In this document: positions 4,613-4,678 of the stretch, in pieces
How positions within the stretch are numbered: position 1 is the stretch's first letter
How the letters are laid out: each line of letters begins with the position of its first letter
Source: a virus
Lineage: Duplodnaviria > Heunggongvirae > Uroviricota > Caudoviricetes
Virus record (IMG/VR): IMGVR_UViG_2531839103_000011
Coordinates: 1 to 5,576 of that record
Reading direction: 5' to 3' (one strand)
DNA length: 5,576 nucleotides
Made by a program: the position numbers and the translations under genes
Notes under the pieces: model-generated
The model's database searches: none
The model's input: only the letters and a program-made list of their open reading frames with translations
What the model was told of the DNA's origin: nothing

Positions 4613-4678
4613 CCGCCACTAGCTCATCAGGAAAGAACGTCACCCTGTGCGAGATTCGGAGTCCCCGGTGGCGGTCCA
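4613..4678 (+). pseudogene. Degenerate tRNA-like element (possible remnant of the middle tRNA of the phage ileZ-argN-argO cluster)
   Basis: 66 nt. Perfect 7-bp acceptor-like pairing CCGCCAC (4613-4619) / GTGGCGG (4668-4674), then T + CCA (4675-4678), and a GCTC D-stem-like start. The interior cannot be folded by hand into canonical D, anticodon and T arms. Sits 1 nt after tRNA-Ile and 13 nt before tRNA-Arg. Confidence 0.3.

Follow-up and report, generated by a model that had tools for sequence, protein, structure and literature searches.

A probably inert pseudogene, derived from a tRNA-Lys(UUU) allele, in the middle slot of a lambdoid-prophage tRNA cluster

Bacterial genomes carry tRNA pseudogenes and tRNA gene fragments, of which pawZ and ptwF of Escherichia coli K-12 are examples, and the tRNA cluster of phage T4 contains small stable RNAs of unknown function. 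RNase P has minihelix and tRNA-like substrates: the bacterial enzyme cleaves acceptor/T-stem minihelices carrying CCA, and some polycistronic tRNA precursors of E. coli are separated by RNase P alone. tRNA gene fragments are also the subject of a preprint (10.1101/2022.07.05.498093). In the Stx2a phages PA21 and EH2246, three tRNA genes occupy the locus considered here, and the middle one encodes tRNA-Arg(UCG), which is annotated as 'argN: tRNA-Arg' in GenBank phage records (e.g., AP012536). A published survey reports Stx2e phages in which the tRNA genes number just two (PMC7366253). Here we describe an unannotated 66-nt element that lies between an intact tRNA with anticodon CAU (slot 1) and an intact tRNA-Arg(UCU) (slot 3), and that, judging from its alignments, is very probably an inert, non-functional pseudogene of the second tRNA gene of a lambdoid-prophage cluster downstream of the Q antiterminator.

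The window, by which we mean the whole stretch of 5,576 nt that was analysed, is the late-regulatory region of a lambdoid prophage, as its Q gene and the neighbours of that gene make plain (Table 1); its other genes include DUF968, RusA and a CAAX-protease-like gene. Parts of the window are each closely matched in prophages of enterohaemorrhagic E. coli (EHEC), and none of the complete E. coli genomes holds 80% or more of it in one place. By these comparisons it is a mosaic prophage that appears unrepresented as such among complete E. coli genomes. A 381-nt stretch around the cluster is found at 100% identity in O157:H7 chromosomes, where the only tRNAs annotated by RefSeq are tRNA-Ile and tRNA-Arg, and the same slot-2 allele is present in an Stx2c phage. 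The 66-mer itself occurs in 393 of 5,426 complete E. coli genomes (~7%), mainly strains of O157:H7, O111 and O121, and 391 of the 393 copies are identical. The slot-1 tRNA, named ileZ in the initial annotation of this DNA, is tRNA-Ile in the PGAP/RefSeq annotation of identical copies, and the slot-3 tRNA is the argO of that initial annotation.

Downstream of the tRNA cluster, at the position where Stx phages carry stx, the window also contains Rfam matches to STnc100 (4878–5086, plus strand, 175 bits) and to the prophage anti-sRNA AgvB (5088–5147, minus strand, 56.6 bits against a gathering score of 56); a match to AsxR fell below its own gathering score.

Table 1. Features of the tRNA cluster and of the region preceding it, in window coordinates.
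Feature	Position	Strand	Basis or remark
Phage antitermination protein Q gene	1453–1833	+	Pfam Phage_antitermQ, E 8.7e-52
DNA methylase gene	3437–4495		Precedes tRNA cluster
Slot 1, intact tRNA, anticodon CAU	4536–4611	+	ARAGORN; Rfam tRNA 70.9 bits
1-nt spacer (A) from slot-1 CCA to the element	4612	+	
tRNA pseudogene, slot 2	4613–4678	+	Homologous to intact slot-2 genes; not called as a tRNA by ARAGORN, Rfam or PGAP
Acceptor stem, 5′ strand, CCGCCAC	4613–4619	+	Pairs perfectly with 4668–4674; retained in MFE folds
D-arm remnant, GCTC-ATCAGGAAA-GAAC	4622–4638	+	Alignment to Lys-type alleles
Remainder of anticodon arm and variable loop, TCACCC/TGTG	4640–4649	+	Pairwise alignments to L111 and L009; multiple alignment
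Damaged T arm, CGAGA-TTCGGAGT-CCCCG	4650–4667	+	Alignment
Acceptor stem, 3′ strand, GTGGCGG, with discriminator T and encoded CCA	4668–4678	+	Direct reading
13-nt spacer TTATCGGTATTCT, of the type seen between argN and argO	4679–4691	+	
Slot 3, intact tRNA-Arg(UCU)	4692–4768	+	ARAGORN; Rfam tRNA 71.4 bits; PGAP tRNA-Arg

Direct reading of positions 4613–4678 gives CCGCCAC-TA-GCTCATCAGGAAAGAAC-G-TCACCC-TGTG-CGAGATTCGGAGTCCCCG-GTGGCGG-T-CCA. The initial annotation had described a perfect 7-bp acceptor pairing, a discriminator base and an encoded CCA, and all three are there: the 3′ strand GTGGCGG spans 4668–4674, the discriminator position (4675) is a T, and 4676–4678 read CCA. Such pairing between given 7-nt ends would arise by chance with a probability of ~4^-7, and it is not attributed to chance because homology to intact tRNA genes of the same slot explains it. 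Whether the element is folded by itself or within the 246-nt cluster, the minimum free energy (MFE) structure contains the acceptor helix, with a 3-bp hairpin, a potential stand-in for the T stem, stacked on it; the MFE of the 66 nt is −20.5 kcal/mol, a fold not better than those of shuffled sequences (z = −0.89). A search of the element and its immediate flanks revealed neither a sigma-70-like promoter nor a terminator.

The contention that this segment cannot adopt a canonical cloverleaf was likewise borne out, both by its internal structure and by tRNA finders. Its D stem carries a C11·A24 mismatch (GAGC to GAAC), and the same G-to-A change is seen in a full-length allele, L111. Alignments reveal that its anticodon stem has lost the 3′ strand and that the anticodon loop is missing. 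In the T arm, G53A breaks the 53:61 pair and an A51·C63 mismatch is inherited, so that three of the five pairs are left, and the T loop, at 8 nt, is one nucleotide too long. Among the features of a canonical tRNA, the acceptor stem, discriminator and CCA are thus present, and the anticodon stem-loop, the G53:C61 pair, the 7-nt T loop and the four-pair D stem are absent. ARAGORN returned no call on the plus strand at the element at default thresholds, at 80% thresholds or at 60% thresholds with introns, relaxed runs having been proposed as a check by the initial annotation; its relaxed minus-strand calls were spurious, overlapping the real tRNAs, and none was for the element. The Rfam tRNA model (RF00005) left the element unmatched at E ≤ 10 in searches of the whole window and of an 86-nt segment. 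PGAP tRNA calling uses tRNAscan-SE, and among the 60 identical copies listed RefSeq/PGAP places no feature under the element and annotates around it only tRNA-Ile and tRNA-Arg.

Slot-2 forms were gathered by a scan of viral contigs and then by look-ups in E. coli genomes, and the element aligns end to end with the middle tRNA of three-tRNA clusters. Alignment with intact clusters of this kind, which had been suggested as a way to see what was lost, reveals that in comparison with argN the element lacks 12 nt of the anticodon arm, namely the loop and the 3′ strand of the stem. The closest full-length relative, however, is not argN but a 77-nt gene designated tRNA-Lys(UUU) by both ARAGORN and PGAP, which is found in Ile-Lys-Thr-Gly clusters (L009, L111) and in Ile-Lys-Arg clusters (L134); examples are those of E. 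coli STE15 (L009, 396–472) and Z1323CEC0017 (L134, 2508–2584). The element departs from L111 by a single mismatch (G53A), by two deletions, one of 1 nt and the other of 11 nt, and by a G inserted into the T loop; when it is compared with the most frequent Lys-type allele, the D-stem change G24A comes on top of these. The 1-nt deletion lies within the former CAAC, and the junction of the 11-nt deletion lies at ~4644–4647, its exact position being ambiguous in a short T run.

By comparison, 8–10 mismatches beyond indels separate the element from argN alleles, and direct descent from argN(UCG) was dropped because the Lys-type alleles show far fewer differences. The flanking spacers point the same way. 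That on the upstream side is 1 nt long for the element and in Lys-type clusters, as against 7–9 nt in argN-type clusters, whereas that on the downstream side is of the argN–argO type, as in L134 and L005, and this combination indicates that the ancestor was a Lys-type gene in an Ile-Lys-Arg cluster. These comparisons show the ancestor to be a tRNA-Lys(UUU) allele of slot 2, itself a homologue of argN. The earlier suggestion of a decayed middle tRNA is therefore upheld as to homology, which is end to end, and synteny, and is corrected as to the nearest intact relative, which is of the Lys type (one mismatch plus indels) and not argN.

The Lys-type gene is itself atypical. U33 is near-universal in tRNAs, and this gene has C33 (loop CCTTTAA), with Buttiauxella versions carrying A33 (loop CATTTAA); its Rfam tRNA score is 44 bits, versus 65–72 bits for its neighbours. 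In L005 and L134 (Lys-type), the 3′ strand of the acceptor stem (GGTGGTGG / GATGGTGG) would form a G3·U70 wobble pair, which in E. coli is the identity mark for alanyl-tRNA synthetase; its occurrence here may be incidental.

The lesions show how the remnant arose and suggest what would become of its transcript. Two deletions, of 1 nt and of 11 nt, took away the anticodon loop together with the 3′ half of its stem, G53A and the extra base wrecked the T arm, and G24A mispairs the D stem. Lacking an anticodon and a D/T elbow, the element would be unable to decode. The remnant would be carried passively and co-transcribed with the two intact tRNAs on either side, and maturation of the precursor would remove it: RNase P would cut at the 5′ end of tRNA-Arg, endo- and exonucleases would then trim the 3′ trailer of tRNA-Ile, and degradation of the remnant would follow. 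Recombination would have spread the allele among EHEC prophages. A counterpoint to the pseudogene reading is that the allele is both common and uniform, which fits recent spread and is also compatible with a benefit.

Decay of the middle slot is not confined to this allele. Among 92 Ile-X-Arg loci, the strict argN-like pattern (77 nt, CTTCGAA loop) is found at 47; a further 23 have a form with an 11-nt anticodon loop that is called by neither ARAGORN nor Rfam, seven have the deletion form of the window, and 15, mostly near-variants of the argN-like type, are unclassified. One locus, L025, holds the same deletion allele as the element with the additional change G66A, which breaks pair 7:66. Variants of the 11-nt-loop form have changes in the acceptor stem (ATGACGG in L017, ATAGCGG in L013) or, in L056, a deleted 3′ end. 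A form with a 1-nt deletion in the D arm is present at L005, and argN is fused to argO at three IMG/VR loci (L033, L063, L112). The middle slot of the Stx/lambdoid-phage cluster is thus expendable and has been lost repeatedly by different routes, with the CAU and UCU tRNAs kept, and this expendability bears on whether phage tRNAs serve to supply rare codons or to rescue translation from tRNA-cutting defences.

Several of these forms have distinctive structures of their own. The 11-nt-loop form, which is the most frequent non-tRNA occupant of slot 2 among the sampled loci (L006, L007, L008, L013, L017, L068, L071 and others), has a 6-bp anticodon stem, the loop ACGATAACAGG and a T loop that is mostly degenerate (GGGGGCGGGTCCCC); versions with a normal T arm occur at L064 and L135, and the E. 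coli allele L135 is annotated 'tRNA-OTHER' by PGAP, a designation also given to homologues in three Yersinia phages. In the fusions, the junction between the 5′ half of argN and the 3′ half of argO lies at the CCTTC common to both anticodon loops, the acceptor strands of the L033-type chimera are mismatched, and ARAGORN calls only tRNA-Met. Citrobacter youngae carries an independent 65-nt slot-2 homologue (L138, element from 664) whose anticodon stem has no 3′ strand and which also lacks a variable loop; its acceptor, D and T arms are intact, and the loss parallels the deletion in the window.

Retention of exact acceptor complementarity despite internal decay had been taken as a hint of selection on structure, and this idea did not survive comparison with the rest of the family. 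The element is only 4–5 events away from an intact allele. With the acceptor and NCCA accounting for 18 of 77 positions, the neutral chance that every event misses them is (59/77)^4–5 = 0.26–0.35, so that in roughly a third of cases the stem would be left as it was. Across 80 distinct family sequences, pair 7:66 is T:A in 49, C:G in 29 and mismatched in two, the G53:C61 pair is found in 79 and the anticodon hairpin likewise in 79, and every lesion of the element falls on a feature otherwise conserved in the family. The C7:G66 pair was considered as a compensatory change following decay, which would have been evidence of selection; this was rejected, since C:G is already present in intact Lys-type genes and was inherited from them. 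The acceptor stem is, moreover, broken in L025, L017 and L013. Within E. coli, nearly all copies are identical and so carry no variation that could reveal constraint on the stem. No faster evolution of slot 2 was seen, intact argN having 0.050 differences per site versus 0.047 for argO, and the CAU tRNA alone being nearly invariant (0.003). From these comparisons, the intact acceptor stem appears to reflect the small number of mutations rather than selection, for which we find no support.

These results bear directly on other accounts of the element. Were its role to direct processing, as the initial annotation also proposed, RNase P would cleave just ahead of it and free tRNA-Ile(CAU) with a 1-nt trailer, which would assist maturation of the tRNAs on either side; the perfect 7-bp stem with TCCA, the acceptor helix predicted by MFE both in the element alone and in the whole precursor, and the 1-nt spacer, which makes a cut at 4612/4613 useful for forming the tRNA-Ile 3′ end, all suit such a role. 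This model is nonetheless unlikely. The T stem that would stack on the acceptor is weakened, with two of its five pairs mismatched and an 8-nt loop, and no signal of constraint was seen, few events separating the element from the intact allele and the 391 copies offering no variation by which to judge it. Loss of pair 7:66 in L025, the mutated acceptors or missing 3′ ends of other decayed slot-2 forms, the L033-type fusions in which only tRNA-Met is called, and the Stx2e phages with two tRNA genes (PMC7366253) also speak against it. An accidental complementarity at the ends of unrelated spacer would accord with a fold energy like that of shuffles, yet the element differs at one aligned position, indels aside, from an intact 77-nt gene of the same slot and keeps identical synteny in dozens of prophages; this explanation is vanishingly improbable and is refuted by the alignments to intact slot-2 genes.

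It is also conceivable, although highly unlikely, that the remnant is a working, non-decoding tRNA-shaped RNA, for example a decoy for tRNA-targeting nucleases or a protein-binding RNA. Many slot-2 genes of Enterobacterales are tRNA-shaped, with 6-nt anticodon loops and strongly conserved bodies, the 65-nt form of C. youngae (L138) arose independently, and both prophage anticodon nucleases and phage tRNAs that rescue translation have been documented (PMC12445682, PMC13043305). However, the element lacks the G53:C61 pair, 7-nt T loop, D stem and anticodon hairpin conserved in the family, and it descends from the Lys type, which has a 7-nt loop, not from the 6-nt-loop group. The broader proposition that the 66-nt RNA is active, as an RNase P minihelix setting the tRNA-Ile(CAU) 3′ end or as a decoy, and belongs to an undescribed non-decoding slot-2 family is unlikely too. 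That the 12 missing nt match the size of the 12-nt anticodon fragment excised from tRNA by P2 Old (PMC12445682) was considered and set aside as coincidence, the gap being best described as two separate deletions, one of 1 nt and one of 11 nt. The inert pseudogene remains the reading that we favour, and genome annotation could flag it as such.

Slot-2 genes extend well beyond Stx phages. A homologue scan with one genome per species found them in many genera of Enterobacterales, among them Dryocola, Enterobacter, Buttiauxella, Citrobacter, Salmonella, Serratia, Cedecea, Yokenella, Pluralibacter and Klebsiella, with anticodon loops of 3–13 nt across the family and stems that covary. One group has 6-nt loops (L137, L140, L142, L150, L157, L158, L167–L169, L179, L181–L183, L185, L186, L188, L191, L193, L198, L204, L208, L212) and a nearly invariant body of 68 nt, CCGCCAC TA GCTCATCGGGAAGAGC G rCAAC ... 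GTTGT AGTA CGGGGTTCGAGGCTCCG GTGGCGG A/T CCA, which comprises a D arm (GCTC..GAGC), an anticodon stem (rCAAC/GTTGT) and a T arm with a TTCGAGG loop. In comparison with this group, the window element has no anticodon stem and a damaged T arm, and its sequence groups with the Lys type. ARAGORN reports the 6-nt-loop genes as 'tRNA-???' with 2-nt anticodons, the two elements tested against the Rfam tRNA model (L150, L140) fall below the gathering score, and at least one gene of the group immediately follows a Q gene, an arrangement that recalls the cluster of the window. Among 17 sequences of 74 nt, the per-site difference is 0.52 in the loop versus 0.06 in the rest (8 times), and 14 pairs of 74-nt sequences are identical outside the loop.

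From these patterns, the 6-nt-loop genes probably encode tRNA-shaped RNAs that are under purifying selection, have an unconstrained loop and are non-decoding, the last of these being suggested by the lack of constraint on the loop sequence. tRNA-cutting prophage nucleases may offer a plausible setting for such RNAs: prophage nucleases cut anticodon arms, and tRNAs of lambdoid phages rescue translation (PMC12445682, PMC13043305). A literature search covering ileZ/argN/argO, 6-nt anticodon loops, prophage tRNA-OTHER and xtpA/yahM found no relevant paper in the collection searched, and tRNA-shaped genes with conserved bodies and abnormal loops across genera merit a study of their own.

An 81-nt relative, part of the Escherichia core genome, resides between yahL and yahM, upstream of yahM, in 5,169 of 5,426 complete E. 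coli genomes (3001–3081 of L228 from E. coli Sanji; ~345334–345414 of MG1655, NC_000913.3, L229). In MG1655 it falls inside xtpA (b4845), a recently annotated small CDS. ARAGORN calls it 'Ser(gga)', and it has no Rfam match. All 81 positions are identical in E. coli, E. albertii, E. whittamii, E. ruysiae and another Escherichia species, with both flanks diverging, and a conserved promoter-like TTGACA-17-ATAATT lies ~140 nt upstream. This pattern of conservation looks like constraint on RNA or DNA rather than on protein.

Among known genes, the Lys-type tRNA is the nearest counterpart of the element, with which it shares the slot after tRNA-Ile(CAU), the 1-nt spacer, the acceptor stem including C7:G66, and the D arm, variable loop and T stem, with only one or two aligned positions differing, indels aside. 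Unlike the Lys-type gene, the element lacks 12 nt, carries G53A, has a T loop of 8 nt and goes undetected as a tRNA. argN likewise sits between the CAU tRNA and tRNA-Arg(UCU) and agrees with the element in its acceptor stem outside pair 7:66 and in its kind of downstream spacer, but it has T7:A66 where the element has C7:G66 and an upstream spacer of 7–9 nt rather than 1 nt. In its sequence and predicted fold, the element resembles RNase P minihelix substrates and the small stable RNAs of T4, in that an acceptor-type helix and a 3′ NCCA would lie within a polycistronic tRNA transcript. Bacterial tRNA pseudogenes and fragments are like the element in that they are recognisably derived from tRNA, form no cloverleaf and do not decode. 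Most described tRNA fragments are halves situated at integration sites of mobile elements, whereas the element described here is the product of an internal deletion, has both gene ends intact and belongs to a phage-borne cluster. It is an ordinary tRNA pseudogene, and joins a kind of element that is already known.
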